A stretch of DNA of 64,000 nucleotides from Candidatus Zhuqueibacterota bacterium (GCA_049322915.1 JBMOPW010000020.1:32001-96000); one strand, 5' to 3'. Numbered from the stretch's first letter, positions 1,918 to 42,050 are shown. Notes: generated from the letters alone by a model not told the origin. Numbers and translations: made by a program.

Positions 1918-4590
1918 ATGAATCGCATCGCCACATCCATAAAGAACCGACTGAGCTTACGGCCGCCGCAAACCGAAAGTCTGGCAATTTTAGCGGAACT
2001 ATGTGACCAATTCTCCCTGAAAAAAGATAGCGACCTGGCGACCGCGTTGCAACAGGTGCAGGAACGTTACCCAACGTGCAGCGATTTCGAACGCAGTTTC
2101 CCGTCCATCTGTTTTGCCCTGGCCACCGGCGTTGGCAAAACGCGGCTGATGGGCGCGTTTGTCGCTTATTTGTATTTAGCCAAAGGTATCAAAAACTTTT
2201 TTGTGCTGGCGCCCAACCTGACCATTTACAATAAACTGATCGACGATTTCGGCAATCCCAATCATCCCAAGTATGTGTTCAAGGGCATTGGTGAATTTGT
2301 CCATAACCAGCCGCGCGTGATCACCGGCGACAATTACCAGTACGCGTCCCAGCTCGATGTGTTTGCCGATGAAATTCATCTCAATATTTTCAACATCTCC
2401 AAAATAAACGCGGAGACGCGCAGCGGCAGCACGCCGCGCATCAAACGGTTGTCCGAGTATCTGGGCGAATCGTATTTCAGATACCTTTCGGGGTTGAAAG
2501 ATCTGGTGCTGCTGATGGATGAATCGCATCATTACCGCGCCGACCGCGGCATGCAGGTGATCAACGAACTCAATCCGGTGCTGGGGCTGGAACTGACCGC
2601 CACGCCGCAGGTGGAACGCAGCGGCGGTACTGTGAAATTTAAAAATGTCGTCTATGAATATGCGTTAGCCAAAGCCATTTCGGATGGATTCGTCAAAGAG
2701 CCGGCCGTGGCGACCCGAGAGGATTTTAAACCAGCGCAATTTTCCACCGAAGAGCTGGATCGGATCAAACTGGAAGACGGCGTGCGCATCCACGAGGATA
2801 CCAAAGTGGCGCTGGATATTTTTGCCCGCGACACCAAGACCAATAAAGTAAAGCCCTTTGTGCTGGTGGTTGCCAAAGACACCAATCACGCCGCCGCGCT
2901 GCGGGAGCTAATCGTTTCCAACTCATTTTTTGATGGCTACTATGCCGACAAAGTGATGGAAATTGACTCCAACCAGCGAGGCAGCGAAAAAGAGGAGAAT
3001 ATTCAAAACCTGCTGTCAGTGGAACAGACCGAGAATAAAATTGAAATCGTCATTCACGTGAACATGTTGAAAGAAGGCTGGGACGTCACCAACCTGTACA
3101 CCATCATTCCCCTGCGCACAGCGGCGGCGTTGACATTGCGGGAACAGACGATTGGCCGCGGCTTGCGCCTGCCTTATGGCAAACGCACCGGCAACGCCAA
3201 AGCCGATAAACTGACGATAGTGGCGCATGACCGGTTTCAGGAAATTATCGACGAAGCGAACAAACCCGGCTCCATCATCCGCAAGGAAAATATCATTATC
3301 ATCGACGAACATGAATTGAACCAGACGAAACAGGTGGTGACTTCGAGCTTTAAATATGTGAGCGTGTTTGAACAGGAGCAGAAGAAGATCGAGCAAATCA
3401 AAGATGTCCGTGAAAAGCAGAACGCGCAGGAACAGCTTGAGATAAAAAAAATAATTTTTGAAACCCTGCCCGAACTTAACCGCGATGTTAATTCCGTGGA
3501 TGAGCTAACCAAAACGGAAATCAAAGCCATTGCCGTAAAGCGCATCCAGGCAAAATTCGAAATTCAAGTGCAGCGGGATATGTTTTCCGGTGAAGTTGCC
3601 AAACAGGTAGAGCAGAGCTACGACGAGATAGCGAAAGAATTCGCACGGCATATCATCGAAATCCCGCGCATCACCATTATGCAGTCTGAGCAGGTTGATT
3701 CCGGTTTTTACGATTTTGATCTGGATGTGCAGAATTTGAACTACCAACCCGGATCCGAGGAAATCATCATACAAACGTTGCGTAATGGAGAAATTGAGTA
3801 TGTCGAGTCATCAGACCGGCGAATACGTTACAGCAGTCTTGAAAATATAATCGTTTCCGAGCTGATGAACCACGCTGAAATTGATTATGATGCGCACGCT
3901 GAATTGCTTTTTAAGCTGGCGCACCAGGCGGTAGAAAAATTCCGCAGCTATCTGGAAGAAGATAAAATCGCCAACGTCATTTTGTATCATAAACGGGATA
4001 TTGGCAAATACATTCACGTGCAGCTCATGGAACATTTTTATTACAAGACGCCAGATTTTCAGGAACCCATTGTTCGGCCCTTCACTCGAATCGAAACGCA
4101 AAATCTATCAAAATATACTGTCGATAAAATTTATGATTTTCGGGAGACAATCACGCCGGCAAATACCATTCCGAGCAAAGTGTTCAGTGGTTTTAAAAAG
4201 GCGTGTCATGACTTGTACAAATTCGATTCGAAAACCGAGAAAGATTTTGCCATCATTTTGGAGCAAAATGCCAACGTACTCAAGTGGCTTCGTCCGGCAG
4301 TGAATCAATTCAATATCTATTACAATCATAATTCGCAACGCTATTGCCCGGATTTTGTTGCGGAGACAAATGATTCACTTTATCTCATCGAAACTAAAAA
4401 AGAAAAGGACATAGAAAGCAGAGAAGTCCAGGAAAAGTCATTGGCTGCCGTACTTTATTGTACCCATGCGACGAACTTCACCCAAAAGCATCATGGAAAA
4501 CCCTGGAAATATGTGTTACTGCCCCACGATGCAGTCCAGATCAATATGAGCTTTAATACATTGGTTCAGCAGTTTGAGTATCAGGTTTGA
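1918..4590 (+). CDS. res: Type III R-M Res subunit (SF2 helicase/ATPase plus C-terminal PD-(D/E)XK nuclease)
   Basis: Walker A LATGVGKT, DESHH, LTATP, MLKEGWDV, QTIGRGLR; C-terminal YCPDFV..LIETK. Confidence 0.93.
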   Translation: MNRIATSIKNRLSLRPPQTESLAILAELCDQFSLKKDSDLATALQQVQERYPTCSDFERSFPSICFALATGVGKTRLMGAFVAYLYLAKGIKNFFVLAPNLTIYNKLIDDFGNPNHPKYVFKGIGEFVHNQPRVITGDNYQYASQLDVFADEIHLNIFNISKINAETRSGSTPRIKRLSEYLGESYFRYLSGLKDLVLLMDESHHYRADRGMQVINELNPVLGLELTATPQVERSGGTVKFKNVVYEYALAKAISDGFVKEPAVATREDFKPAQFSTEELDRIKLEDGVRIHEDTKVALDIFARDTKTNKVKPFVLVVAKDTNHAAALRELIVSNSFFDGYYADKVMEIDSNQRGSEKEENIQNLLSVEQTENKIEIVIHVNMLKEGWDVTNLYTIIPLRTAAALTLREQTIGRGLRLPYGKRTGNAKADKLTIVAHDRFQEIIDEANKPGSIIRKENIIIIDEHELNQTKQVVTSSFKYVSVFEQEQKKIEQIKDVREKQNAQEQLEIKKIIFETLPELNRDVNSVDELTKTEIKAIAVKRIQAKFEIQVQRDMFSGEVAKQVEQSYDEIAKEFARHIIEIPRITIMQSEQVDSGFYDFDLDVQNLNYQPGSEEIIIQTLRNGEIEYVESSDRRIRYSSLENIIVSELMNHAEIDYDAHAELLFKLAHQAVEKFRSYLEEDKIANVILYHKRDIGKYIHVQLMEHFYYKTPDFQEPIVRPFTRIETQNLSKYTVDKIYDFRETITPANTIPSKVFSGFKKACHDLYKFDSKTEKDFAIILEQNANVLKWLRPAVNQFNIYYNHNSQRYCPDFVAETNDSLYLIETKKEKDIESREVQEKSLAAVLYCTHATNFTQKHHGKPWKYVLLPHDAVQINMSFNTLVQQFEYQV

Positions 4591-4849
4591 CAAGAAATAA
4601 AATCAATAAAAGAAATTCTTTCTCGATCTATTAAAACGAGGAAATGTGAATAAACTATACTTCACAGGCATGTTCACCCACGGCGAATCGGAGTTTTTCA
4701 TCAGTTAAATCGATCCGGTCAGCCATACCGTGCGTAAATATTAGCCCGATTTCCTGGTTCAGGACAACTCGGGCAATTGGACTTTGTTCGAGATCAAAGC
4801 AGATTGCATGATCGACGATCCAGTGAATGCTGCCAAAGAACGATATGCC
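3335..4849 (+). repeat. Left arm of ~1.5 kb inverted repeat (partner 40536-42050)
   Basis: Reverse complement of 40536-42050; about 20 substitutions in 3335-4122, none seen in 4123-4849. Confidence 0.95.
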
Positions 4850-4882
4850 GCCCAAATGGGATTCGAGAATCAGATGCGGTGC
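4610..4882 (+). pseudogene. Decayed 3' end of a different Res-like PD-(D/E)XK nuclease
   Basis: Reads KKFFLDLLKRGNVNKLYFTGMFTHGESEFFIS*IDPVSHTVRKY*PDFLVQDNSGNWTLFEIKAD..; stops TAA 4706-4708 and TAG 4742-4744. Confidence 0.7.
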
Positions 4883-5262
4883 TGTCCAGTATCGATGTCG
4901 GATTGATTTTGAATTATTCTCCATCGCAAGTCAGTCAACTGCGCCAACAGTGGGAGAAAGATCACCAGGAAACCTTGCCATCCAGGGGCAGCTACCACGA
5001 TTTGGGGCGGACGTTTACTCATAAACAGCAAATCGTTGCCTATCATCTTGAGGGCTTGATGCCATCAGAAATCGCCCGTAAAACAGATCATGATCCTGCC
5101 TGTATGGATCGCTATATCAGAGATTTTGAAAGAACAGTCCCATTCTTCGAAGAAGGTCAACCCATTGCCAAGATTGCCTTCTACACGCGGCTGAGTGAAT
5201 CGTTGAAAAAAGAATACCGAAAAATTTATGAACAAACAATTGGCTGCTATAAAAAGACATAG
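4883..5262 (+). pseudogene. C-terminal fragment of a DUF1670-like HTH protein
   Basis: LPSRGSYHDLGRTFTHK..EIARKTDHDPACMDRYIRDFERT resembles DUF1670; the 5' part of ORF 4777 is the nuclease remnant read in another frame. Confidence 0.55.
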
Positions 5263-5547
5263 TTTCTGATAATTCCTTTTGAGTAGGGGTCAATTGATAC
5301 TATTGAATATTGAAATAAAACTTAAGCTCTTATTTTTGAAATTCGTCCGGCGTGCGATGCCTTTATGCATCGCAGACATCGCACTCCACGGTAACATTTC
5401 ATTATATCCCATCGACCGCTTTTCATTTTAGAATTTTAGGTAACGTTTTTATAAATTAGTCGTTCCCGCCATGCATTGAAAAAAGCGAACGGCCAGACGC
5501 TCCCTGTGTCCGCCAAAATCTACCCCGAATTATCCGACACGCGGCGC

Positions 5548-6528: not shown

Positions 6529-6555
6529 TCGAATCGTTGCGCTTTCTTCATCACG

Positions 6556-6927: not shown

Positions 6928-6972
6928 GGAATTCCTCTCTCCTTCGAATGTGATATCTTTCAATCCGGCTGC

Positions 6973-8415: not shown

Positions 8416-8635
8416 CTCTTGCTCCTCTCTGTAAATGTCCGTTCCGGCAGATTGCGCCGGAGATTGTTATTCCTGAAAATGAATGTCAGGTCGAAGATAA
8501 TTCGTTTCTGTCCGAAAATACCAAAATTAGCTAAGGGGTTGATATTCTCAAACTTCATTACTTCAGACCTCATCTCCTAAAACCGTTCTTACCCTGCGGG
8601 CAAGAAGGGGAACATCTGTTCTCCCTCTCCTTTTA

Positions 8636-8909
8636 GGCTTACCCTTACCCATATCTTTTCTAACGCAGAGACCGCAGAGGTACGCAGCGTTTTGGTATTG
8701 AAAAAAAGCTGTTTGCAAATTTATGAGACCAGGTATTTTCCTGGTTATTCTGGTCTTCTGTGACTATGGGTGAACATGATTTTCATTGGTTGATTGAAAA
8801 TTTTAATATCACTCAGACCAATTCAAAGATAGTCTTTGCTCTGCGCCCTTCGCGACCTCTGCGTTTCATTTGATTGTAATATCCCCCAACGTATGGGTGT
8901 GGATTAGCC
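8636..8909. mobile_element. MITE-like element nested in a REP-like hairpin
   Basis: Imperfect terminal inverted repeats ggcttacccttacccata / tatgggtgtggattagcc; flanks ctttta / ttttta; internal acgcagag..ctctgcgt palindrome. Confidence 0.55.
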
Positions 8910-8999
8910 TTTTTAGACAGGGTTGGGGTGAGGTCAATATTAGCAGTTTTCAGACTGACACTAATTCGTGACAAAAGAACCAAGCTAGTCGAGATCGAT

Positions 9000-16369: not shown

Positions 16370-16554
16370 TTTTCCTCTTTGGCTTCATTTGAAATGGACG
16401 ATGCGGCATGCACTCACGAGAAAAATGGAGAGTCGCCGCGCCCGGATTGTTACTATAAATTCACGAATTTTTCATCAATATAAACAAATCTTTTTTGAAA
16501 ATCAATTTGTATTTCATTCGGAAATCATCTGATTGTCCGGCGAAACAGGCCGGC

Positions 16555-16593
16555 AAAAAATAATAAAACCACAGCGATGCACTGTGGTTTTAT
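16555..16593 (-). terminator. Intrinsic terminator
   Basis: ataaaaccacag / ctgtggttttat stem followed by a T-rich tract on the minus strand. Confidence 0.65.
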
Positions 16594-16620
16594 CAGGGTC
16601 AAATTAATCTGGACAACCAG

Positions 16621-18597
16621 CTATCTGAGGATGAGCATCTTTCGTGTCTCCTCAAAGTTCCCGGCCGTGAGCCGGTACAGGTAGGTTCCAGCCGCTACAT
16701 TCAGACCGCGCCGATCTTTGCCATTCCAGAGAACCTGATACGAACCGGCGCTCTGGCTCGCGTGGACGAGGCGGGCAATTTCATCGCCGAGGAGATTGTA
16801 AATCCTCAAATCCACCAGCACTGCGGAACCCGTCTCCGGAATCTGGTATCGGATGACCGTCTCCGGGTTGAACGGATTGGGATAGTTTTGCTCCAATCGG
16901 AACGACGCCGGCACGGTGATTTGCTCCTCGGCCACGCCAACCGGCAGAACGGTCACTGCCACAATCTGTGAGTAGGCGAAATTGCCGCTCAGGCCAATCT
17001 GTTTCAGACGGTAGGAATAATCTCCCACGACAACGGTAGTGTCCATGAACGCATAGACATGCGGTGAAGTGGTCGTACCAAAGCCATCGACAAATCCGAT
17101 TTTCTCCCAGTCGCCTGCTGCGCCTGTTTTGCGCTCAATGTCGAAACCGGCGTTCGCAATTTCAGAGGCGGTTGTCCAGTTCAGTTCGACGATACTTGTA
17201 CTCACGACTTCGGCTGTGAAAGTGGTCAAATCCACGACCTGGAATTCGACCGGCGCGATTTCGATCGACATTGGCGATTGGAAATTTCTGGCCAATGACT
17301 CGCCGACTGCAGGATCGGAATTGCCCGGCAGGAAGAACGATTTGTAGGCGAACCGCAGATTACCCACGATCTTCGTGCCGGCGCTTTGAATCAGAATGCC
17401 GGACTCGCCGAAAGCGCGCATGTCCCCGGTGTCTTCGCCCTCGTCGCTGAGCGTCGAATCATCTTTGAAATAGATCGAGTGCGTCTCGCCCAGCGAATCG
17501 ATTTTGAACAAATAGACGAACGTTCCCTGAAGGCCGGTGGAGAGGAACCAGTTCACGCCGTGCAGGTCCAGACTGTCGTCGAAAGACGATGTGTCCGGCG
17601 CGGGATTGCCGTCGATGACAATGCCCTGGGTATTGTAGGGATTGTAGAACTTCATCCCGGCGGCCTGTTCATTCAAATCGAACGATTGTTTGATGTAGTC
17701 GACCGAGTCCTTTTCCTGAACCCTGAACGACAGCCCGCCCGATTCCATTGAGTAGGGATAGTATTCCAGCGGCAAGGAAAATTCTTTTGCCTCGATGCCC
17801 TGAATGGCAACAGTCCACGTGACCTCCCGCAGCACGCGAACAGGGCCATCCTTGAAATTCACTGCCGGCGGAAATTCCTGCAAAAAATTCTCCCGGATGG
17901 TCGCCGGCATCACCACTTCAGAGCCGCCGAAACTGATATGCAGCATCAAATCCACGTGCAGTTTCTGCCTGTCCAGTATATCTTCCCCGTTGCCGCCGGC
18001 CGCCACCGGAATGGACAGATAGTCCGGAATTCCTTTGGTGTGCCCTTCAGAATAACTCGCTCCGTGTATGAAATCCGCGCCCTGGTCGTCGGGATCCGAA
18101 CTTGGCGCATAGCTGATATAGTCTTGCATGGCCGGATCGTGCGTCAGGGTTTTTGAACGATAGATGTACACCAGGGCCTGCTCATCCATGTGAGCCGTGT
18201 CGGTGATGGCAATGATGAACCGGCCATATTGCCGCGAGTCCTGATCCTCAATCCAGATGAGACCAGACGCCTCATCCCCCATGTCCCGCGCCATAAAAAT
18301 GATCTCATCGGTTGAATCCAGATCGCCATCGTTGCCGGAATAGGCGTAGCGTCCATCGTCGAGTCTCTCGTCGATCTGAGACGGAATCTGCGACCAGCCA
18401 TTCTGCGCGGCATCGTAGCGGTACAGGAATAGCTCCGAAATGGGGGCGTTCAACAGATCCGGGAACTGCTCGCCCCGGATGATGATGGGTTCATAGTCGC
18501 GCGTTGTATTCCAGCGGAGACTCTGCGACGCTGCGCTGGTGACGGTGACAGCGATGATAATGATCAATACCGTCCAATAGAAATTCTTGAATCTCAT
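16621..18597 (-). CDS. Secreted paralog of 13244-16369 without cohesin-like domains
   Basis: Same N-terminal domain (FLY.y..W.QI..QID..DEI.FMA.D.GD, LDRQK, QSFDLN, DTGD..A.G..GI); C-terminal EQNYPNPFNP; AAGGAGG RBS. Confidence 0.8.
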   Translation of the reverse strand: MRFKNFYWTVLIIIIAVTVTSAASQSLRWNTTRDYEPIIIRGEQFPDLLNAPISELFLYRYDAAQNGWSQIPSQIDERLDDGRYAYSGNDGDLDSTDEIIFMARDMGDEASGLIWIEDQDSRQYGRFIIAITDTAHMDEQALVYIYRSKTLTHDPAMQDYISYAPSSDPDDQGADFIHGASYSEGHTKGIPDYLSIPVAAGGNGEDILDRQKLHVDLMLHISFGGSEVVMPATIRENFLQEFPPAVNFKDGPVRVLREVTWTVAIQGIEAKEFSLPLEYYPYSMESGGLSFRVQEKDSVDYIKQSFDLNEQAAGMKFYNPYNTQGIVIDGNPAPDTSSFDDSLDLHGVNWFLSTGLQGTFVYLFKIDSLGETHSIYFKDDSTLSDEGEDTGDMRAFGESGILIQSAGTKIVGNLRFAYKSFFLPGNSDPAVGESLARNFQSPMSIEIAPVEFQVVDLTTFTAEVVSTSIVELNWTTASEIANAGFDIERKTGAAGDWEKIGFVDGFGTTTSPHVYAFMDTTVVVGDYSYRLKQIGLSGNFAYSQIVAVTVLPVGVAEEQITVPASFRLEQNYPNPFNPETVIRYQIPETGSAVLVDLRIYNLLGDEIARLVHASQSAGSYQVLWNGKDRRGLNVAAGTYLYRLTAGNFEETRKMLILR

Positions 18598-18972
18598 GGT
18601 GATCCTCCTTGCTGAATTCAAAAGATAATGAACTGTTTGCTTGTGCATCTCCGTTTCGAGTCGGTGATCCGAATGAATGAAGAACGATGAACCGAGTCAT
18701 CGTGTCGGCGAAATGTAGTCACGCCGCTGCATTCCAACAGTGTTGTTAGTCACAATTATAAAAAACTTAACCAATAATTTTTTTGCAACAATACCTCTGG
18801 CTCCCGGGCAGCGCCCCCTCCCCGCTGTGATCGGATTGCAAATCACTAGGCCGAATCAGGGGCTGTATGCTGCCGGTACGGACAAACATTCATGGACAAT
18901 TTAAATATTTTTTTCAAAATAGCAATAACTTTTTATTAACACTTGATCATAAATATCGGTTTAAAAAATGAC

Positions 18973-19018
18973 TTGACTTTGAACCATAATATTTTTATAT
19001 TTTGCCAATTAACGAAAT
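18973..19018 (+). promoter_or_regulatory. Sigma70-type promoter and candidate ArsR operator
   Basis: TTGACT-17-TATATT; imperfect palindrome ATTTTGCCAATTAACGAAAT at 18999-19018. Confidence 0.6.
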
Positions 19019-19032
19019 GATGAGGAGCAATC

Positions 19033-19377
19033 ATGGATCAATTAGTCAGAATTTTCAAGGCGCTGGGCGATAAGAATCGGCTGCGCATCGTGAAGATGTT
19101 GCAATGCCGATCGCTGTGCGTCTGCGAAATAACGGCAGTTCTGGAACTGGCCACGTCGACAGTTTCTAAACATTTGAGTATTTTGAAAGAAGCGGAAATT
19201 ATCACCGATAAAAAAAGCGGTAAGTGGGTGGATTATCATCTGGTAGCCGATCCCAAAAATATTTTCGTCACCGCCTTCCTGCCGCTCATCACCTTCTGGC
19301 TGAATGATGACGAGCAGATGAAAGCCGATCTGGAAAAATTAAAATCGACCAATCGGATAGAATTATGCAAAATATAA
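19033..19377 (+). CDS. arsR: ArsR/SmtB family repressor
   Basis: FKALGD..RLRI, LCVCEI metal-binding motif, STVSKHLSILK; heads the ars cluster. Confidence 0.92.
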   Translation: MDQLVRIFKALGDKNRLRIVKMLQCRSLCVCEITAVLELATSTVSKHLSILKEAEIITDKKSGKWVDYHLVADPKNIFVTAFLPLITFWLNDDEQMKADLEKLKSTNRIELCKI

Positions 19378-19405
19378 TCCGGGTGGTAGCGTCAGAAAAG
19401 ACATA

Positions 19406-20108
19406 GAACGCGGATGACACGGATTACACTGATCTTCGCGGATTTTTATTTGGTCCTTATCCGCGTAAACCCGCGTCATCAGCGTAATCCGCGTTCTATA
19501 AAATCTTTACCTATTTTCCCAGGTACCCAACTACCTAAAACATTTCGACATTTTGCTGAAGAAATATTTGAAGTAACCAGCGCTGGATTGGAGCGCGGAT
19601 GACACGGATTACACTGATCTTCGCGGATTTTTATTTGGTCTTTATCCGCGTAAACCCGCGTCATCAGCGTAATCCGCGTTCTATAAAATCTTTGCCTATT
19701 TACCCAGTTACCCAATTATCTAAAACATTTCGACATTTTGCTGGAGAAATATTTGAAGTGACCAGCGCTGGATTGGAGCGCGGATGACACAGATTACACT
19801 GATCTTCGCGGATTTTTATTTGGTCTTTATCCGCGTAAACCCGTGTTATCAGCGTAATCCGCGTTCTATAAATTCTTTGCCTATTTACCCAGGTACCCAA
19901 CTACCTAAAACATTTCGACATTTTGCTGGAGAAAAATTTGAAGTGACCAGTGCCGGATTGGAGCGCGGATGACACGGATTACACTGATCTTCGCGGATTT
20001 TTATCTGGTCTTTATCCGCGTAAACCCGCGTCATCAGCGTAATCCGCGTTCTATAAAATCTTTGCCTATTTACCCGGTTACCCAATTACCTAAAACATTT
20101 CGACATTT
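19406..20108 (+). repeat. Tandem array of ~3.8 x 185 bp (palindromic element plus captured arsC segment)
   Basis: Units start at 19406, 19591, 19776, 19961; near-identical; tails of units 1-3 match arsC 20202-20253. Confidence 0.95.
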
Positions 20109-20135
20109 AACGAAGCAAATGAAAGAGCAAATTTG

Positions 20136-20561
20136 ATGAAGGAAAAAATACTCGTCTTATGCACCGGCAACTCCTGCCGCTCCCAGATGGCTGAGGGATA
20201 TTTTCGACATTTTGCTGGAGAAAAATTTGAAGTGACCAGCGCTGGCTTGGAGCCGAGTGTGGTCAATCCGAAAGCCATTCAGGTGATGCTGGAAGATGGC
20301 GTGGATATTTCCAGCCATACGTCCAAAGATGTGGAGCAATTCATTGGGCAAAATTTTAATTATATCATTACGGTTTGTGACAATGCGAAGGAACGCTGTC
20401 CGTTTTTCCCAGGACAGGCGGAGCGGATTCTCTGGAGTTTTGTGGATCCGGCCGGTGCGCAAGGGAGCGAAGCAGAAATTTTTGCGATGTTCCGAAAAGT
20501 GAGGGATCAAATTCGGGAAAGGATAAAAGAGTTTTTGAATGAATTTGAATTGTCAATTTAA
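20136..20561 (+). CDS. arsC: Arsenate reductase, LMW-PTP/thioredoxin type
   Basis: LCTGNSCRSQMAEG, ITVCD..ERCP, W.FVDP. Confidence 0.92.
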   Translation: MKEKILVLCTGNSCRSQMAEGYFRHFAGEKFEVTSAGLEPSVVNPKAIQVMLEDGVDISSHTSKDVEQFIGQNFNYIITVCDNAKERCPFFPGQAERILWSFVDPAGAQGSEAEIFAMFRKVRDQIRERIKEFLNEFELSI

Positions 20562-20625
20562 CATCACCCTTTCTAAGGTTTGCTACCTTTGAAAGGGTAA
20601 AAGATAAAAAAATTTTGGAGGAACA

Positions 20626-21672: not shown

Positions 21673-21737
21673 AATTCAAAGAAGCCAAGCTTCTGAAATG
21701 AGTTATTTCTTAACGACTGAGCAGGGGAAAAACAATC

Positions 21738-21976
21738 ATGATTATAAAAGTTTTAGGCACAGGTTGTCCCAACTGTTTAAAGCTGGAAGAACTGGAAAAA
21801 AAGCGGTTCAAGAGCTGAATATAAACGCCGAATTTGTTAAGGTTAAAGAAATTGATAAAATTTTAGAGTATGGAATCGCGCGAACTCCTGGCCTGGTGAT
21901 CAATGAAATAGTGAAATCATCAGGAAGAATTCCTACCATTGATCAGATCAAAACCCTTATTCATGAATCGCTGTGA
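21738..21976 (+). pseudogene. Small redox-active disulfide protein (TM0996/MTH895 type), frameshifted in an A7 run
   Basis: MIIKVLGTGCPNC in one frame and AVQELN..TPGLVINE in another; break at A-run 21796-21802; intact paralog at 37070. Confidence 0.8.
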
Positions 21977-21997
21977 AAACGAAAAGGAAATTTGAAT

Positions 21998-22663: not shown

Positions 22664-22671
22664 GGGGCTGG

Positions 22672-23367
22672 ATGCTGACAAGTCTTTTTACCTGGCTAAC
22701 CAATGTCATTCAAGGTCAACCATACTTTGCCATTTTCGCTGCTTTTCTCTGGGGAATTTTGAGCATCCTGCTCAGCCCCTGTCACCTGTCCAGTATTCCG
22801 CTGATCATCGGCTTCATCGATAAGCAGGGACATGGCTCGGTCAAACGGGCGTTCTGGCTCTCGCTGTTGTTTGCCGTTGGAATTTTGGTAACGATTGCCG
22901 CCATCGGCATCATCACTGCCTCGCTGGGCAGACTTATGGGCGATGTTGGCAATGTCGGAAATTACCTGGTGGCGATTGTCTTTTTCCTGGTGGGGCTATA
23001 CCTGCTTGATATAATACCCGCACTGTGGAGTGGCGCCACAGGGACGAACGTAAAGCAAAAAGGGCTGGCTGCGGCCTTTTTATTAGGCTTGATCTTTGGA
23101 ATTGGACTGGGTCCCTGCACATTTGCCTACATGGCGCCAATGTTGGGAGTGGCGTTTCAGGTTGCCGCCACCCAACTGCTGTTTGCCATTACGCTGTTAG
23201 CCGCCTTTGGCGTGGGGCATTGCTCGGTGATTGTGTTGGCAGGCACACTGATCGAAAAAGTCCAGCACTATTTGAATTGGACTGAAAAAACAAGAGGGGC
23301 GATCATCGTTCGCCGAATCTGTGGCGTTCTGGTTATATTAGGTGGAATTTATTTGATAATAAATTAG
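22672..23367 (+). CDS. ccdA: CcdA/DsbD-beta type transmembrane disulfide reductase
   Basis: LSPCHL and GPCTF cysteine pair, about 6 TM helices; follows thioredoxin. Confidence 0.85.
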   Translation: MLTSLFTWLTNVIQGQPYFAIFAAFLWGILSILLSPCHLSSIPLIIGFIDKQGHGSVKRAFWLSLLFAVGILVTIAAIGIITASLGRLMGDVGNVGNYLVAIVFFLVGLYLLDIIPALWSGATGTNVKQKGLAAAFLLGLIFGIGLGPCTFAYMAPMLGVAFQVAATQLLFAITLLAAFGVGHCSVIVLAGTLIEKVQHYLNWTEKTRGAIIVRRICGVLVILGGIYLIIN

Positions 23368-23535
23368 GACACGGATTCAACTGATCCAACAGATTTGTAT
23401 GGAATTTTTCTGACTGTTGTAAAAATTGAAATGTAACAGGCAAATTATTTCTTTCGTCTCACATCTGCCGTCTCACGTTTCACTTTTAAAGCGATCTGTT
23501 CAATCGGTGTTCCATAAAAAATTATAGGAGCAACA

Positions 23536-24708
23536 ATGAAAGACCGTACCAAATTAACCATCATCATTACGACATTTTTAGCTGCGTATTTTATTCCATT
23601 CAGTAAAACGAATGTTCAAAAAGCGCTGCTGGAAGCCCTTTTCATGCTGCAGGACTATGCCCGTGAGCATGTGCTGTTCTGCCTGGTGCCAGCGTTCTTC
23701 ATCGCTGGTGCGATCTCTGTTTTTGTGAATCAGGCAGCCGTCCTGAAATATTTTGGCGCCCAGGCAAATAAAATCCTATCGTACAGCGTGGCATCAATTT
23801 CAGGGACGATTCTGGCGGTCTGCTCCTGTACGGTGTTGCCGCTGTTTGCCGGAATTTACAAACGCGGTGCAGGCATTGGTCCTGCCACGGCATTTCTATA
23901 TTCAGGTCCGGCCATCAATGTGCTGGCGATTATCCTGACTGCACGCGTTTTGGGACCAGAATTGGGCATTGCCCGAGCCGTGGGCGCTATCGCTTTTTCA
24001 GTGATCATCGGGTTGGCAATGGCATTCATCTATCGCAAAGAAGAAAAAGAGCGGAATGCAAAATCGATCAATTTCGCCCAGGGCATGGAAGAAGCCATGC
24101 GGCCGCTATGGAAAAATGGGTTATTCTTTTTTACTCTGGTGCTGATCCTCATCTTTGCCGCCTGGGGCAAGCCGGCCCAGCCAGTGGGTTTCTGGAATTT
24201 CGTTTTTCAGATCAAATGGTATCTCACCATCGTCTTGCTCGGCTTGCTGGGCTGGCAACTGTGGCGCTGGTTTAAAAAGGATGAATTGAGCCAATGGGTG
24301 AGCCAGACCTGGTTCTTCGCCTGGCAGATTCTACCGCTATTGTTCGGTGGCGTGCTCGTTGCTGGATTCTTGATGGGCCGACCCAATACCGATTTGGGCA
24401 TCATCCCTTCCAGTTGGATTCAAACCGCCGTCGGGGGCAATTCCCTGTGGGCGAACTTATTGGCCTCTGTTGCTGGTGCTCTGATGTATTTCGCCACCCT
24501 GACCGAAGTTCCCATTCTGCAGGGGCTGCTCGGCAGCGGCATGGGTAAAGGCCCTGCGCTGGCGTTGCTACTGGCAGGACCTGCGTTGAGCCTGCCCAGC
24601 ATGCTGGTTATTCGCAGCGTGATCGGTACAAAAAAGATGCTAACTTATATTGCGCTGGTGGTTATCATGGCCACTGTGACGGGGATGGTGTTTGGAGGAA
24701 TTTTTTGA
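23536..24708 (+). CDS. arsP: ArsP-like (DUF318) permease
   Basis: LAVCSCTVLP, FLYSGPAIN, YFATLTEVP, GPALSLPS; in ars cluster. Confidence 0.85.
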   Translation: MKDRTKLTIIITTFLAAYFIPFSKTNVQKALLEALFMLQDYAREHVLFCLVPAFFIAGAISVFVNQAAVLKYFGAQANKILSYSVASISGTILAVCSCTVLPLFAGIYKRGAGIGPATAFLYSGPAINVLAIILTARVLGPELGIARAVGAIAFSVIIGLAMAFIYRKEEKERNAKSINFAQGMEEAMRPLWKNGLFFFTLVLILIFAAWGKPAQPVGFWNFVFQIKWYLTIVLLGLLGWQLWRWFKKDELSQWVSQTWFFAWQILPLLFGGVLVAGFLMGRPNTDLGIIPSSWIQTAVGGNSLWANLLASVAGALMYFATLTEVPILQGLLGSGMGKGPALALLLAGPALSLPSMLVIRSVIGTKKMLTYIALVVIMATVTGMVFGGIF

Positions 24709-24819
24709 TGATTTTACTGTGTCTGAAGATTTTGGCACAGGGATTTAGAAGGGTGAAACGACGATGCATTGTGTGGTTTTATTGACAAGCTGATGGATTA
24801 CTTAGCGCTGAAGGTCTAA

Positions 24820-30729: not shown

Positions 30730-30772
30730 TCGGCGCATGATTTTTTAAGGGGTTCATTGATGGCTAAAAATT

Positions 30773-31288
30773 GGCAGAATAATCGGTCGGCAGAATGATT
30801 TTGTGAAAATGGATTGTTGGCAATTAACAATGAACTTCGTCATCAGATAAATTTTAAACATGATCAAGCTTGCTTTGCTGGGGTGACAGCAACAAAGAAA
30901 TAATTATTCTGCCGTGAAATCATTCTGCCATAATAACTGAATCATTAATTGGCAGAATAAGTGGTCGGCAGGATGATTTTGTGAAAATGGCTTATTGGCA
31001 CTTAACAATGAACATCGTCATCAGATAAATTTTAAACCTGATCGCCCTTGTTTCGCTGAAGTGATGGCAACAAAAAAATAATTATTCTGCCGTTAAATCA
31101 TTCTGCCAAAATAACTGAATCATTAAATGGCAGAATAATCGGTCGGCAGGATGATTTTGTGAAAATGGCTTATTGGCACTTAACAATGAACATCGTCATC
31201 AGATAAATTTTAAACCTGATCGCCCTTGCTTCGCTGAAGTGATGGCAACAAAAAAATAATTATACTGCCGTGAAATCATTCTGCCATA
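30773..31288 (+). repeat. Tandem array of ~2.9 x 178 bp palindromic units
   Basis: Units start at 30773, 30951, 31129; each opens GGCAGAATAA..GGCAG(A/G)ATGATTT and closes ATTAT(T/A)CTGCC..AAATCATTCTGCC. Confidence 0.92.
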
Positions 31289-31305
31289 CTAAAGGAAAAT
31301 GCAAA

Positions 31306-33126: not shown

Positions 33127-34327
33127 ATTATTAAAAATCGCTTATACTGGTCTTGGAAGAAATAAGCTCCGGACATTCCTGATGATGATAGGGATCGTAA
33201 TTGGCATTACGGCGCTCACATTAATTATCTCGGTGGGAATCGGCGCGCAGGATCGGGTGATGGACCGGGTGAAAAAATTCGGGCTGGAGAGCATTATGGT
33301 ATTTGCCGGCGGCGGCAGAGAAATGGGTCAGCCGAGCGGCGGACAGATTACCACATTAACCCTGCAGGATGCTGAAGCGATCAAGCGCGAGGTGAGCGCA
33401 ATCGACGAGGTGGCGCCGTTTAACCGTAAAGGCAATGCGGAAATTAAATATCTGGATAATTCAACCACCGCGACGGTTTTCGGTATTACCCCGACCTGGG
33501 CATCCGTCTGGGACTGGGACGCTGAAACAGGTGATTTTATTTCGGAAGAAGATATGGCTAATTTTAATCGGGTTTGTCTGTTGGGCCCCACAGTGAAGAA
33601 GGTACTGTTTGGAGATGAAAATCCAATTGGGCAGCAAATCCGCATCGGTACTATTCAGTTCGAGGTGAAAGGCGTAATGCAGCCCAAGGGAACCAGTCCC
33701 GGCGGCGGTGACATGGATAACCGGGTGAATATTCCACTGACTACGTTTATGCGCCGTGTGGCCAATGTGGATTATATTGCCGGGATTAAAATTCTGTTGA
33801 CTTCCGCCAGCGAGATGGAACAAGCAGCCGAAAATATCCGGGCGATTCTTCGGGAACGGCACAGCATTGCAGCAGGTATGCCGGATGATTTTTCAATTAC
33901 AACGCCCACTGAAGTGACTCAATTTGCAGAGAAGGTTGCCGGGACATTCAACATTTTTCTGGCGCTCGTAGCTGGCATTTCTTTAATCGCCGGCGGAGTT
34001 GTTGTTGCTAATATCATGCTCATATCAGTGAACGAAAGAAAAAAAGAAATTGGTTTGCGTAAAGCAGTTGGAGCAAAGAGTAAAGACATCATGATGCAAT
34101 TCCTGTTTGAAGCATCTGCCGTTACGTTGATCGGGGGAGTCATCGGAATAATTCTCGGCGGAGGAGGCGCAAAAATTTTGGAGATGATAACAGGCATGCC
34201 GGTATCCATCTCCTGGGAAAGCGTTACCCTCGGTGTCGTTTCTTCAAGTTTGATTGGAATTATCGCGGGACTGCAACCGGCAAAACGCGCCTCCAAACTG
34301 CAACCAGTTGAAGCCCTGCGATCATAG
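33113..34327 (+). CDS. MacB/FtsX-type ABC permease
   Basis: RTFLMMIGIVIG, SVNERKKEIGLRKAVGA, PAKRASKLQPVEALR. Confidence 0.92.
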   Translation: MKTTRLLKIAYTGLGRNKLRTFLMMIGIVIGITALTLIISVGIGAQDRVMDRVKKFGLESIMVFAGGGREMGQPSGGQITTLTLQDAEAIKREVSAIDEVAPFNRKGNAEIKYLDNSTTATVFGITPTWASVWDWDAETGDFISEEDMANFNRVCLLGPTVKKVLFGDENPIGQQIRIGTIQFEVKGVMQPKGTSPGGGDMDNRVNIPLTTFMRRVANVDYIAGIKILLTSASEMEQAAENIRAILRERHSIAAGMPDDFSITTPTEVTQFAEKVAGTFNIFLALVAGISLIAGGVVVANIMLISVNERKKEIGLRKAVGAKSKDIMMQFLFEASAVTLIGGVIGIILGGGGAKILEMITGMPVSISWESVTLGVVSSSLIGIIAGLQPAKRASKLQPVEALRS

Positions 34328-36552: not shown

Positions 36553-36566
36553 AATCGGAGTGAACA

Positions 36567-37309: not shown

Positions 37310-37500
37310 ACAACCACAAAAAAATAATTACCAATACTTAATTCTTTTAGCTATTGAATTAAAATGACCGTTGAATACGCCAAAGGACGCATCTGCCTTT
37401 GGCATGATCCGTGTGAATCAGTGTCATCCGCGTCATCCGCGTGCCATGAATTAACTCAAGTTTGCCACTAACTCAATTATCGAAAAAAAGTAAGTTACGC

Positions 37501-38355
37501 ATAAAAGACCGAACCAAACTAATGGTCAATATAACAACTTTTTTGGCCGCCTATTTCATTCCATTCGAAAAAGTGTACGTGCAAAAAGCGCTGCTGGAAT
37601 CGTTTCTGATGCTGCAGGAATATCCCCGCGAGCATGTGCTCTTCTGTCTCGTGCCGGCGTTCTTCATCGCCGGCGCCATTTCCGTTTTGTGAATCAGGCG
37701 GCTGTGATGAAGTATTTCGGCGCAAAGGTGAACAGAGTTTTATCCTGCACAGATGCATCGGTATCAGGGACAATTCTCGCGGTCTGTTCCTGCATCGTCC
37801 TCCCTCTATTTGCCGGCATTTACAAACGCGGCGCCGGCATTGGTCAGGCAACCGCCTTTCTCTATTCAGGCCCGACCAACGATATGCTGGCAATTATTCT
37901 CATTGCCAGTGTTTTGGGGCCGAAAATGGGAATCGCACGAGCTGTCGGCGCTATTTTATTTTCGGTGATCATTGGCCTGGCAATGACCTTCATCTTCCGC
38001 AGGCAAGAAAAAGAGCGCAACGAAAAAGCCATCAATTTCACGCTGGGCGCTGAAGAAATGACGCGCCCTGTGGAAAAACAGTCTCTATTTTCTCTCGCTG
38101 GTTTTCATCCTGATTTTTGCTGACTGGGGCAAGCCGGCGAGCCATTGGGATTCTGGAACGCCGTATTCCAAATCAAATGGCCGATAACGTTGACGCTACT
38201 GGTTTTGCTGGGACTGCAACTGTGGCGCTGGTTCAAAAAAGACGAGCATTCCCAGTGGCTGAACCAGACATGGTTTTATGACTGGCAAATTCTGCTGCTA
38301 TTGTTTGGCGGCGTGCTGTTCGCTGGCTTTTTAAAGGGTCGCCCCAGTACCGATT
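37501..38355 (+). pseudogene. arsP: Degraded ArsP-like permease, paralog of 23536-24708
   Basis: Start ATG changed to ATA, 1-bp deletions near 37688 and 38068, truncated after GRPSTD. Confidence 0.88.
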
Positions 38356-38391
38356 CAGACCAGACGAAGCGATGAATAAAGTACTTCTGCC

Positions 38392-38468: not shown

Positions 38469-38568
38469 CATCCAAAGAAGACCTGACAATACGGTCATGA
38501 AGAGACAGAAAAGCAACTAATGGGGAAAGGATAAGATTGGCCTCACTGAGGGATTTTGATGCATCGAT

Positions 38569-38955
38569 TTAAACGATTTTATTTTCCAGATTTAATATTC
38601 GTGTTTCGTGGTTATCGATTGTCTTTTCATGGCGTGTGCGTGCATGATCCACTGCTGTTTTTTCAGTCTTTCCATTTTGAAGCCCTTTGGCAATACCATC
38701 GATGGCCGTCATCATAATATCAAACTTGTTGTCGAGAGAATCCAGACGGTCATCTACCCGCTGAAATCCATTATTCATTTCAACTTTGAGTTCAGCAATG
38801 TCGTTGCTATTTTTAAGCACCTGGCGGGCGACAACTTCCAGGGCTTCTTTTGTCGCATATTTGCTCAATTCATTTCTAAAATCTTGTTTAAGCTCCTGTT
38901 TAAGATTTTCAAGATCCTTTTTTGTTGCGACATCGTTCTCGGAATGGACAGCCAT
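38569..38955 (-). CDS. Small coiled-coil hypothetical protein (copy B)
   Basis: ATKKDL/ATKEAL motifs and heptads; near-identical to 39018-39425; GGGAG RBS. Confidence 0.75.
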   Translation of the reverse strand: MAVHSENDVATKKDLENLKQELKQDFRNELSKYATKEALEVVARQVLKNSNDIAELKVEMNNGFQRVDDRLDSLDNKFDIMMTAIDGIAKGLQNGKTEKTAVDHARTRHEKTIDNHETRILNLENKIV

Positions 38956-39017
38956 TTTTTTCTCCCGGATTCTAACTTTAAGGTTAATAAAAAATTATCC
39001 TGCCAAACCAAAGTTCG

Positions 39018-39425
39018 TCAGGCTGTTTTCGTCTCCAGGTTTAATATTCGTGTTTCGTGGTTATCGATTGTCTTTTCATGGCGTGTGAGTGCATGATCCA
39101 CTGCTGATTTTTCAGTCTTTCCATTTTGAAGCCCTTTGGCAATACCATCGATGGCCGTCATCATAATATCAAACTTGTTATCGAGAGAATCCAGCCGAAT
39201 TTCCACGTTATCAAGACGCTGATCTACCCGCTGAAACCCATTTTTCATTTCCACTTTGAGTTCAGCAATATCATTGCTGTTTTTAAGCACCTGACGGGCG
39301 ACAACTTCCAGGGCTTCTTTTGTCGCATATTTGCTCAATTCATTTCTAAAATCTTGTTTAAGCTCCTGTTTAAGATTTTCAAGATCCTTTTTTGTTGCGA
39401 CATCGTTCTCGGAATGTACAGCCAT
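39018..39425 (-). CDS. Small coiled-coil hypothetical protein (copy A)
   Basis: As copy B with one extra heptad; TTGACT-17-TATGTT promoter at 39463-39491 on the minus strand. Confidence 0.75.
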   Translation of the reverse strand: MAVHSENDVATKKDLENLKQELKQDFRNELSKYATKEALEVVARQVLKNSNDIAELKVEMKNGFQRVDQRLDNVEIRLDSLDNKFDIMMTAIDGIAKGLQNGKTEKSAVDHALTRHEKTIDNHETRILNLETKTA

Positions 39426-39509
39426 TTTTTTCTCCCGGATTTTTTATGTTGGACTTGTAATAAACATAAAGCAATCTTGTTAAAAAGTCAACACATATTT
39501 TTATAAAAT

Positions 39510-39789
39510 TCAAAGCATCAACCTGCCGCTCCCCGCCTCGCTCGCCTGCGCCAGCTCGCACCGCATCTGATTCTCGAATCCCATTTGGGCGGCATATCGT
39601 TCTTTTGCGGCATTCACCGGATCGTCGATCATGTAAACGGCTTTTATTTCGAACAAAGTCCAGTTGACCGAGTTGTCCGGTACCAGGAAGTCGGGGAACT
39701 ATTTGTGAAAATTATGACTGGTTGGATCAATATAGTTGACGAAGAAATCTGACTGTCTGCAGGTGAATAATGGTAAGATAGAGCTTCGG
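39510..39789 (-). pseudogene. Decayed 3' end of Res-like PD-(D/E)XK nuclease (remnant 2)
   Basis: QSDFFVNYIDPTSHNFHK*FPDFLVPDNSVNWTLFEIKAVYMIDDPVNAAKERYAAQMGFENQMRC..*. Confidence 0.7.
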
Positions 39790-40020
39790 TTACAATAATT
39801 CTTTAAATTCTTCCAGTGTCACTCCTATATCACTTATAATCCCCTTCAATGTTTTTGGTTTAATATCCTTTCCTGAATGAATGGGTATAACCACTCTAAA
39901 TTTTTTTTCTGGATGAATATAAACGGCATGGCTGCCAGATTGCCGATCAAATTTAAAACCAAGCTGCTTTACAACTTTAATAACATCCCTCGAATTCAAA
40001 ATAGGCAAGCCTGGGCTCAT
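39790..40020 (-). CDS. hicA: HicA family mRNA interferase toxin
   Basis: GF.FDRQSGSH, VVIPIH, KTLKGII. Confidence 0.9.
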   Translation of the reverse strand: MSPGLPILNSRDVIKVVKQLGFKFDRQSGSHAVYIHPEKKFRVVIPIHSGKDIKPKTLKGIISDIGVTLEEFKELL

Positions 40021-40241
40021 ATAGCAATCCTTAGCGACTTGATCAGAATGTCTTCTTCAGGTACGTTTTCATTGTGGGCGATCATACTTTCCAGGTATAA
40101 TTTGATCGCATCCTGAATGTTATTGAGAGCTTCATCATAGGTATCCCCTTGTGAGTGACATCCCTTCAGCGCAGGGCAAAATACGTGATACCCTCCGTCA
40201 TCCTCTCGTTCAAAGATGATTGTATAATTGAACATTTTCAT
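40017..40241 (-). CDS. hicB: Short HicB family antitoxin
   Basis: GGYHVFCPALKGCHSQGDTYDEAL.NI.DAI; overlaps hicA by 4 nt. Confidence 0.9.
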   Translation of the reverse strand: MKMFNYTIIFEREDDGGYHVFCPALKGCHSQGDTYDEALNNIQDAIKLYLESMIAHNENVPEEDILIKSLRIAI

Positions 40242-40454
40242 TTTCAGGCTCCCAGGTTAAACAGCAATAAATTGATTACCTGTCATCGCAGTGCTTTGAG
40301 TTGCCAGATTTTTGCCTTCTAAATTAACGAATGAAAAGTAGAAAATCAAGTGCTTTTTGCAATCTTCATTCCGGGATCGGTGTCCTCTGGACGCTCTAAA
40401 TCATCATGTCACAGAAGAATTGAATATGAATTAACTCCACATCTCCAATTAATT

Positions 40455-40775
40455 TCACCTCAAAATCCGCCCCATCCCCTCCTCGCTCGCCTTCACCATC
40501 ACGCATCGCATCTGGTTCTCAAAGCCCATTTGCGTGGCATATCGTTCTTTGGCAGCATTCACTGGATCGTCGATCATGCAATCTGCTTTGATCTCGAACA
40601 AAGTCCAATTGCCCGAGTTGTCCTGAACCAGGAAATCGGGCTAATATTTACGCACGGTATGGCTGACCGGATCGATTTAACTGATGAAAAACTCCGATTC
40701 GCCGTGGGTGAACATGCCTGTGAAGTATAGTTTATTCACATTTCCTCGTTTTAATAGATCGAGAAAGAATTTCTT
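40455..40775 (-). pseudogene. Decayed 3' end of Res-like PD-(D/E)XK nuclease (remnant 1)
   Basis: Identical to 4610-4849, then ATQMGFENQMRCVMVKASEEGMGRILR*. Confidence 0.7.
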
Positions 40776-42050
40776 TTATTGATTTTATTTCTTGTCAAAC
40801 CTGATACTCAAACTGCTGAACCAATGTATTAAAGCTCATATTGATCTGGACTGCATCGTGGGGCAGTAACACATATTTCCAGGGTTTTCCATGATGCTTT
40901 TGGGTGAAGTTCGTCGCATGGGTACAATAAAGTACGGCAGCCAATGACTTTTCCTGGACTTCTCTGCTTTCTATGTCCTTTTCTTTTTTAGTTTCGATGA
41001 GATAAAGTGAATCATTTGTCTCCGCAACAAAATCCGGGCAATAGCGTTGCGAATTATGATTGTAATAGATATTGAATTGATTCACTGCCGGACGAAGCCA
41101 CTTGAGTACGTTGGCATTTTGCTCCAAAATGATGGCAAAATCTTTCTCGGTTTTCGAATCGAATTTGTACAAGTCATGACACGCCTTTTTAAAACCACTG
41201 AACACTTTGCTCGGAATGGTATTTGCCGGCGTGATTGTCTCCCGAAAATCATAAATTTTATCAACAGTATATTTTGATAAATTATGCGTTTCGATTCGAG
41301 TGAAGGGCCGAACAATCGGCTCCTGAAAATCTGGCGTCTTGTAATAAAAATGTTCCATGAGCTGCACGTGAATGTATTTGCCAATATCCCGTTTATGATA
41401 CAAAATGACGTTGGCGATTTTATCTTCTTCCAGATAGCCGCGGAATTTTTCTACTGCCTGGTGCGCCAGCTTAAAAAGCAATTCAGCGTGCGCATCATAA
41501 TCAATTTCAGCATGGTTCATCAGTTCGGAAACGATTATATTTTCAAGACTGCTGTAACGGATTCGCCGGTCTGAGGACTCGACATACTCAATTTCTCCAT
41601 TACGCAACGTTTGTATGATAATTTCCTCTGATCCGGGTTGGTAGTTCAAATTCTGCACATCCAGATCAAAATCGTAAAAACCGGAATCAACCTGCTCGGA
41701 CTGCATAATGGTGATGCGCGGGATTTCGATGATGTGCCGCGCGAATTCTTTCGCTATCTCGTCGTAGCTCTGCTCTACCTGTTTGGCAACTTCACCGGAA
41801 AACATATCCCGTTGCACTTGAATTTCGAATTTTGCCTGGATGCGCTTTACGGCAATAGCTTTGATTTCCGTTTTGGTTAGCTCAGCCACGGAATTAACAT
41901 CGCGGTTAAGTTCGGGCAGGGTTTCAAAAATTATTTTTTTTATCGCAAGCTGTTCCTGCGCGTTCTGCTTTTCACGGACATCTTTGATTTGCTCGATCTT
42001 CTTCTGCTCCTGTTCAAACACGCTCACATATTTAAAGCTCGAAGTCACCA
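40536..42050 (-). repeat. Right arm of ~1.5 kb inverted repeat (partner 3335-4849)
   Basis: Position on this arm = 45385 minus position on the left arm. Confidence 0.95.
40795..42050 (-). pseudogene. res: 5'-truncated second copy of res (C-terminal ~417 aa, frame open)
   Basis: Matches the Res C-terminal half with 4 aa changes (E>A, D>A, S>G, Q>H); lacks the helicase motifs and a convincing start. Confidence 0.9.

Follow-up and report, generated by a model that had tools for sequence, protein, structure and literature searches.

An inverted partial copy of a Type III res gene in a Candidatus Zhuqueibacterota genome looks like a rearrangement scar

Inverting Type I hsdS systems, in which the target-recognition domains of the specificity subunit are shuffled among closely placed expressed and silent hsdS genes, have been described (for example Atack et al., 2020, PMC7394358). 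In this study, we analysed a stretch of 64,000 nucleotides (nt) from a Candidatus Zhuqueibacterota bacterium, here called the window (G000:C20:32001-96000, G000 being a metagenome-assembled genome (MAG) of 6.25 Mb in 45 contigs), which carries a Type III restriction-modification locus, mod-res, and an inverted partial copy of res. The locus resembles the hsdS systems in that an inverted partial gene copy accompanies restriction-modification genes, and differs from them in what is copied, namely res, at a distance of 36 kb, with four residue differences and no recombinase alongside. Many inverting hsdS systems carry an adjacent recombinase, and in Type III systems specificity is carried by Mod, with Res as the motor and nuclease subunit.

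Inversions between long inverted repeats are also documented, an unstable inversion in Staphylococcus aureus being one example (PMC6778178). With the RecA inversions at ribosomal RNA operons, insertion sequence copies and prophages, the present arrangement shares kilobase-scale inverted repeats, independence from a dedicated recombinase and potential reversibility; unlike them, its repeat is a partial restriction gene and not a multicopy element, and one orientation was seen.

Inversion-associated duplication of DNA (DDAI) was described in 2011 in Helicobacter pylori, with the staggered-break model of Ranz et al. (2007), and both DDAI in bacteria and later recombination between the arms are treated in PMC8963470, PMC4671568 and bioRxiv 10.1101/2025.09.20.677491, on which this account is based. 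As in DDAI, a breakpoint segment reappears inverted at the other breakpoint, the duplication spans only part of a gene, genes decay at the breakpoints and the new homology is able to drive later recombination. The departures are that the arms here have diverged, with 20 differences in their outer half that look selected, that the far breakpoint has lost sequence, and that polarity comes from one congener and an assembled orientation only. We conclude that the observation is real and that the partial res copy looks like an ordinary one-off rearrangement scar, with DDAI as the likeliest single origin at slightly below even odds; the readings that involve a real inversion, taken together, are quite probable.

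The res locus and its inverted copy

The genes and the two arms of the inverted repeat are as follows.

175-1821, plus strand: Type III mod, an N6/N4 DNA methylase gene (Pfam N6_N4_Mtase 1.5e-49; PADLOC MTase_III 9.2e-199)
1918-4590, plus strand: intact Type III res, 890 amino acids, with ResIII helicase and C-terminal PD..ExK nuclease (Pfam ResIII 1e-20; PADLOC REase_III 6.9e-183)
3335-4882, plus strand: left arm, res codons 473-890 and 292 nt downstream (inverted-repeat search)
40503-42050, minus strand: right arm, the inverted partial res copy, its helicase half missing (inverted-repeat search)

The adjacent and co-oriented mod and res, with the nuclease motif PD-(D/E)xK present, identify a Type III restriction-modification system, and no second mod copy was found in the genome at the megablast level. 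P811, D812, E825 and K827 of Res were invariant in an alignment of 23 sequences, and this nuclease motif lies inside the tract that is identical between the arms. Res is a member of a large family; of 7984 scored candidates, 1822 proteins reached E <= 1e-20. Full-length homologues have about 890 amino acids and are 55-71% identical to it across the C-terminal region. Shorter homologues of 506-527 amino acids (P0002, P0020, P0029, P0081 and P0102) cover 99-100% of Res residues 440-890 at 57-71% identity, and may be contig-edge truncations or truly split or truncated res genes. Across residues 440-890 the closest outside Res is only 69-71% identical, so the two arms probably share a very recent origin.

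The arms are the window's one long inverted pair, 1548 nt long and 98% complementary with 35,620 nt between them, and beyond both arm ends the left and right sides are unrelated. The genome held no further copy, except for a partial third one, of the last 195-210 nt or so, at 39558-39767. In the right arm a frame of 418 codons stays open (40795-42051, minus strand), with weak Pfam matches (RE_endonuc 0.0016, TnsA-like 0.0017). An ungapped comparison gave 26 mismatches, distributed as 20 in 3335-4122, none in the 727 nt of 4123-4849 and six in 4850-4879; the first 20 comprise 16 synonymous and four missense changes (E508A, D528A, S677G and Q728H, left to right arm). The initial annotation, made from the sequence alone, had reported that the res 3' half and its downstream sequence recur inverted with the frame open (3335-4849 and 40536-42050), with about 20 substitutions, 16 of them synonymous, followed by some 730 identical positions. 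Both the extent and the counts turned out to be exact, its repeat being our arms minus the six-mismatch tail.

The predominance of synonymous change, also pointed out there, is real. In the arm alignment that it had called for, the Nei-Gojobori proportions of synonymous and nonsynonymous differences were 0.099 (pS) and 0.0064 (pN), a ratio (dN/dS) of 0.065, which departs from neutrality (P = 2e-8) and from a model with one copy decaying and one constrained (P = 0.002). At 2.5% divergence, the probability of 727 identical positions would be 8e-9. All four missense sites fall at non-invariant columns of the Res alignment. Polarising them gave no direction: at 508 and 677 it is the right copy that has the unusual residue, at 728 the left one, and position 528 varies.

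Local repeats and the four junctions

The sequence downstream of res contains the following elements.

4606-4882, plus strand: res-like pseudogene fragment with two in-frame stops, a hybrid of R1 and R2 (matches open reading frames in G009, G013 and G015)
40448-40794, minus strand: R1, an old res-like 3' fragment that continues beyond the inner end of the arm at 40502/40503
40017-40241, minus strand: hicB (Pfam HicB_lk_antitox 7.1e-14)
39790-40020, minus strand: hicA (Pfam HicA_toxin 2.1e-21)
39503-39790, minus strand: R2, a second old res-like 3' fragment, downstream of hicA (repeat search and alignment with R1)

Read on the res strand, the roughly 290 nt after the res stop encode a nuclease C-terminus fragment of a different, older res-like gene. 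These nucleotides are not an attC-like element, and the frame at 40350-40730 (plus strand) and 4655-4924 (minus strand) was rejected as a gene, being the antisense reading of the old res-like fragment.

The hicB-hicA pair is flanked by R1 and R2 as direct copies, 76-81% identical and 945 nt apart, which looks like an insertion with a long target duplication. Homology between R1 and R2 runs 55 nt past the arm, and hicB-hicA follows. The same order of a res-like 3' end, hicB and hicA was found on contig C80 of G013, a genome of the same family, with a weak further res-like match (E 0.008) about 1.2 kb past hicA. This conserved order suggests that R1-hicBA-R2 is probably an old arrangement, and thus supports the view that the right arm's inner junction is native.

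The tail of the left arm tells where the duplicate came from. At the 87 sites that distinguish R1 from R2, the left arm agrees with R1 at the first 81 (to 4834) and with R2 at the last six (4850-4879), with a single switch inside a common 15-nt block at 4835-4849 (AAAGAACGATATGCC). The six mismatches at the arm end are therefore structural, and the R1/R2 hybrid is exactly what a deletion of hicBA by recombination between R1 and R2 would leave. Since the tail is a hybrid of local R1 and R2, the duplicate appears to have been made from local sequence. For an origin of both copies from one resident sequence speak the hybrid local tail, the 727-nt identity and the mere 69-71% identity of the closest outside Res; the 20 differences at a dN/dS of 0.065 speak against it. 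In the last 33 nt, read from the alignment, four of the six R1/R2 differences are synonymous in the old frame.

The junctions at the arm ends, and the sequences that they join, are listed below.

3334/3335: J1, native, res coding sequence continuous
4882/4883: J2, novel, 7-nt microhomology GCGGTGC (4876-4882) joining the R2-type fragment to a DUF1670 gene (four-way alignment of the left arm, R1, R2 and C29)
40502/40503: J3, native, R1 runs on into hicB-hicA, order kept in G013
42050/42051: J4, novel, 11-nt microhomology CGAAGTCACCA (42040-42050) between reverse-complemented res and a dispersed repeat
4883-5304, plus strand: 3' part of a DUF1670 gene (Pfam DUF1670 6.3e-29, profile positions 99-220 of 220)
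42040-42172, plus strand: dispersed-repeat copy with its left part missing (about 40 matches genome-wide)

In each arm, one junction is thus native and the other novel; this is the pattern expected from DDAI and favours it. Positions 4876-5304 (429 nt) are 99% identical to C29:49479-49907, and the repeat at J4 was aligned with seven other copies, of which those on C2 and C34 carry exactly the 11 nt of the joint. Given the 7- and 11-nt microhomology joints, simple staggered nicks may be a poorer fit than a replicative template switch. At C29:48268-49865, G000 has two adjacent full DUF1670-type helix-turn-helix genes (271 and 261 amino acids); this pair may be mobile, because the 99% identity of the window fragment is so recent.

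The junctions bear on the proposal of a programmed or selected switch, in which the arms would be kept for frequent inversion to exchange C-terminal variants of Res, or the cargo downstream of mod-res, in the manner of Type I hsdS shufflons. The proposal could draw on the open right-hand frame of 418 codons, on the mostly synonymous divergence and on the 727-nt identity, which means recent exchange or recent common origin; with only 20 changes, however, an open frame is expected by chance. What is copied is res without its helicase half, and mod, which bears the specificity, is single. Only four residues differ, at non-invariant columns, and all of them are placed outside the identical tract, towards the outer arm end. 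This tract is the likeliest place of a crossover, and one inside it leaves Res unchanged. Moreover, both ends of the copy are illegitimate joints, one to a gene fragment and one to a truncated repeat, and no invertase is near the locus. We consider such a switch extremely improbable.

The genome-wide recombinase complement comprises two tyrosine recombinases (XerD and one on C45) and one serine recombinase on C2. No dedicated site-specific recombinase was found among the 54 window open reading frames scanned or those in the 8 kb upstream, and the nearest, XerD (TIGR02225, scoring 358.8 bits where the cut-off is 329.6), is encoded beside birA, some 25 kb away from the right arm. The statement of the initial annotation that the window contains none, which left a RecA-type process, therefore stands, recA being present in the genome. 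Among the 41 genomes searched (G000 included), the same layout was not found around res homologues. The top-ranked titles and abstract beginnings returned by literature searches described Type I hsdS shuffling and repeat-mediated inversions, with no mention of Res-subunit shuffling.

Two ideas of the initial annotation are consequently abandoned. Its analogy with hsdS shufflons, by which inversion would swap Res variants, fails because Res is not the specificity subunit, four residues differ and a crossover leaves Res unchanged; the silent cassette, or functional allele in reserve, is replaced by what looks like a local partial duplicate with microhomology junctions and an R1/R2 hybrid tail. 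The partial res copy looks like a scar and not a Res shufflon.

Gene order, mechanism and assembled orientation

Synteny was compared with G001, the one congener available. The segments concerned are these.

4883-40502, 35.6 kb: interval inverted relative to G001 (order on G001:C90 and G001:C64)
C20:25980-27428, upstream of the window: sigma factor, Fur-family gene and catalase
C20:27625-32035 (window -4375 to 35): defence island upstream of mod, with DrmD-like SNF2 helicase, PDC-M59A and PDC-M59B

On G001:C90, window positions 16289 to 5570 appear reversed and are followed, after a 586-nt spacer, by 42479 to 53801, so that GrpB adjoins TPR-GH5-oppD; the spacer has no res, DUF1670 or dispersed-repeat homology. 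G001:C115 is colinear with window 16470 to 24711, and its end appears to abut the start of C90. On G001:C64, arsM and an ArsP fragment (both plus) and a single coiled-coil gene (minus) are followed after 365-450 nt by a catalase remnant (minus) at 33396-33887, G001's only catalase match, which is decayed, spans residues 90-248 and contains four stops. G000 retains the intact pair of Fur-family gene and catalase. Both G001 adjacencies, GrpB with TPR and coiled-coil gene with catalase, are those expected if the interval 4883-40502 lay the other way round. Comparison with G001 places one breakpoint in the stretch from catalase to window 5570 and the other in that from 39508 to 42479, and the inverted arms are found at both.

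An inversion relative to the related genome is thus present, provided that the assembled orientation is correct. The suggestion in the initial annotation that an inversion has happened is accordingly upheld in so far as the interval ends at the arms and G001 has the opposite order, and is held back by the chance that the assembled orientation is wrong. Its prediction that a flip would co-orient oppB-oppC-pepF with TPR-GH5-oppD and place them next to each other describes exactly the order of G001.

As to polarity, G001 has no orthologue of res (best match 7.4e-7), though its pepF is 82% identical, and R1, R2, hicBA and the whole island including mod-res are absent from it. With its catalase cut after about residue 248, facing the coiled-coil gene, and with R1, R2 and hicBA gone, G001 looks like an island-deletion derivative. 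If it derives from an order of catalase, island, R1-hicBA-R2 and coiled-coil gene, the flipped order would be ancestral. More distant relatives lack the opp-pepF block and are therefore unusable as an outgroup.

Considering these results, we propose a model for the locus, in which the anatomy, junctions and synteny are read from the sequences and the order and mechanism of events are reconstructed from them. The ancestral order would have been catalase, defence island (DrmD-like helicase, PDC-M59A/B, mod, res), R1, hicB, hicA, R2 and coiled-coil gene, continuing to oppB-oppC-pepF, hydrolase, GrpB, the DUF1670 genes with the dispersed repeat, TPR, GH5 and oppD. A single event would have flipped a segment reaching from the 3' half of res to GrpB/DUF1670, and the left-breakpoint segment (res codons 473-890 and the res-like fragment, probably through hicBA to R2) would have been duplicated at both ends in opposite orientation, the new joints forming at microhomologies of 7 nt to the DUF1670 gene and 11 nt to the dispersed repeat. 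Later, the left copy may have lost hicBA by recombination between R1 and R2, leaving the hybrid tail that is observed, and the outer 788 nt of one arm may have been replaced by a conspecific allele about 2.5% diverged, as the dN/dS of 0.065 suggests; such a replacement would explain the 16 synonymous against four missense changes. The remaining repeat, with 727 nt identical, would be a passive RecA substrate, for which flip-back at low frequency is possible with Res unchanged.

Several points weigh against this model. The arms are not identical, and 20 differences with a dN/dS of 0.065 are not predicted by a simple in-situ duplication, so that the extra allelic replacement has to be added. The right breakpoint is unclean, since the dispersed repeat has lost its left part and the DUF1670 gene is incomplete, and a deletion or resection must also be added. 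Polarity rests on one congener that has itself been rearranged many times: C115 has a 12-kb insertion, some 30 kb separate the arsP fragment from arsM, and the catalase is decayed. The orientation depends on an assembly that resembles a short-read de Bruijn assembly with k=127, and GC skew supports neither orientation.

Alternatively, the duplicate may have come first: a res fragment would have arisen at the GrpB-TPR site without inversion, either as a templated ectopic copy (two or three template switches) or as a longer second copy trimmed by two microhomology deletions, and RecA would later have flipped the 35.6-kb interval, with crossover-associated conversion homogenising the middles of the arms. 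In its favour, the novel junctions, viewed in the fragment's frame, are two direct-repeat microhomologies of 7 and 11 nt, as slipped deletions leave, and a single recombination with a conversion tract would account for the inversion as well as for the 727-nt identity, the 20 differences being original allelic differences. RecA-mediated recombination usually needs homology far shorter than these arms, and both of its requirements, long inverted homology and a recA gene, were found, with a 727-nt exact run inside 1548 nt at 98% and recA on C32 (477.7 bits). This order of events, however, requires more steps than the one-step model. Its variant with an independent second island would, given the hybrid tail of local sequence, need a conspecific source with the same locus and ectopic inverse integration, and what marks the inner end of the identical tract at 4849/4850 is a structural change to R2-type sequence instead of a conversion boundary. 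We regard the duplicate-first order as the main, though rather unlikely, rival of DDAI.

The remaining alternative concerns the assembly itself. Contig C20 is 302 kb long and N-free, and both arms are traversed within it. The contig-end overlaps of 125-127 nt in the MAG point to a short-read de Bruijn assembly with k=127, and several contigs terminate in 170-250-nt dispersed repeats. At this k, the part of the arms that bears the differences is unique, its exact runs reaching at most 118 and 105 nt, and ambiguity is confined to the 727-nt tract. Under a mis-orientation, the genome would be colinear with G001, with an intact mod-res-R1-hicBA and, between GrpB and TPR, a lone res fragment in inverted orientation, and the assembler would have threaded the interval the wrong way through a collapsed 727-nt repeat. 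The flipped path uses identical junction sequences, phasing is needed only across the 727-nt tract, and the flipped order requires no inversion relative to G001; the short-read signs of the MAG (45 contigs, end overlaps, ends in repeats) point the same way. On the other side stand the N-free contig with both arms in it and the traversal elsewhere of exact repeats of 850 nt (two loci, C19/C32), which pose the same kind of ambiguity, and of 936, 1207 and 1271 nt. Graph assemblers normally break at unresolved inverted repeats and do not guess. As these longer repeats were traversed by MAG contigs, passage through 727 nt is not exceptional for this assembly, and linking information beyond 727 nt is suggested. 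We judge a mis-orientation unlikely.

Sequencing runs were also considered. The stretch is present in run X1, possibly the source sample, and two further runs of the same study carry next to none of its words. X1 is represented by contigs with k=31, for which the 727-nt tract is too long to phase, and is thus neutral on either orientation. Its contigs have depths of 62.5 and 72.2 in the flanks (single-copy) and 83.7-125.8 in the arm; both arms are seen, as is the joint at 3335, and loose ends at 4876/4882 lead into R2 and C29. At position 4407, inside the "identical" tract, the X1 contigs have A (depth 96.3) where the MAG has G in both arms, which is either a copy-specific difference collapsed by the assembler or a strain polymorphism. 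With this variant in neither assembled arm, one collapsed edge was probably used twice, in keeping with a mis-orientation, and a sparse difference may have been collapsed. An X1 loose end at 5333 was rejected as an alternative junction, as it was traced to contig C38, a patchwork of short dispersed repeats. A low-depth joint from 2297 to 3049 and a loose end at 2266 have no match anywhere in the genome and probably derive from another organism's res. A metagenome scan with a wobble-tolerant probe from the identical tract gave no matches, records near this genome possibly lying outside the scan.

The GC skew, of which the initial annotation had asked for a cumulative plot, favours neither orientation. 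The skew is -0.026 in the left half of the interval and +0.050 in the right half, against +0.03 to +0.06 for the contig, and tracks gene strand; half of the interval is therefore discordant whichever way round it lies, which makes the skew uninformative.

Neighbouring genes and biological meaning

The defence island scored well in PADLOC (DrmD-like SNF2 helicase, 964 amino acids, 7.7e-214; PDC-M59A, 359 amino acids, 1.6e-107; PDC-M59B, 147 amino acids, 2.2e-33), and PDC-M59B is Fic/Doc-like by eye. No tRNA that could have served as an island insertion site was found within 20 kb upstream. The gene names given earlier for the window (mod, res, oppB/oppC, pepF, TPR, GH5, oppD and hicA/hicB) were borne out by Pfam. 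According to Pfam, the minus strand of the interval carries GrpB, an alpha/beta hydrolase, pepF, oppC, oppB and two secreted proteins. Its plus strand carries an arsenic/metal block of an SBF-family transporter, thioredoxins, ArsP, sigma/anti-sigma, efflux and methyltransferase genes. At the end of the interval are a frameshifted ArsP pseudogene, a tandem coiled-coil gene and hicA/hicB, and to the right of the right arm are TPR, GH5 and oppD.

The ArsP pseudogene (37462-38375) is 73-79% identical to the intact arsP at 23536-24708, and its decay predates the split of the two species, because an ArsP fragment is also present on G001:C64. The tandem coiled-coil copies (38569-38955 and 39018-39425; 128 and 135 amino acids) are about 92-95% identical in nucleotides, with a single gene of 149 amino acids in G001, and the protein has weak matches to PADLOC LmuA (1.5e-4) and Pfam ABC-3C CTD6 (0.008).

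Repeats are frequent in and around the window. A dispersed unit of about 170 nt at 56300-56470, in which several contigs end, has on the order of 80-100 genome copies that are 92-98% identical. It is accompanied by a composite dispersed family of about 400-620 nt, with further repeat sites at 8498-8965, 55955-56577 and 42040-42172. With no Rfam match in the window, the dispersed repeats belong to no described RNA family. Units of 185 nt form a tandem array at 19393-20253, and three tandem 178-nt units (86-89% identical) lie at 30769-31302 between an outer-membrane efflux gene and a HlyD-type gene. A motif of closely spaced words like ATCCGCG or ATCCGTG recurs in scattered copies at the edges of several gene blocks, at 36-155 just upstream of mod, at 37407-37447 and at 55978-56101.

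The rearrangement is of a known kind, and it opens no new question on Type III enzymes. It carries two warnings for work on similar loci: an inverted partial copy of a restriction-modification gene with mostly synonymous differences mimics a phase-variation cassette and can be a scar with allelic exchange, and the orientation of a short-read MAG across a repeat longer than k is untrustworthy without phasing reads. It is very unlikely that the arms form a reversible RecA flip-flop, with a biofilm population holding both orientations. If they did, inversion would toggle hicBA directly downstream of the active mod-res operon, as well as the co-orientation and closeness of oppB-oppC-pepF with TPR-GH5-oppD, and would provide reversible heritable heterogeneity in defence-island expression and peptide uptake with no dedicated recombinase. 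Read as a scar in which a partially duplicated gene, a hybrid repeat and two microhomology joints come together, the locus would represent a base-resolved example, from an uncultured biofilm bacterium, of a defence island entangled in a chromosomal inversion.

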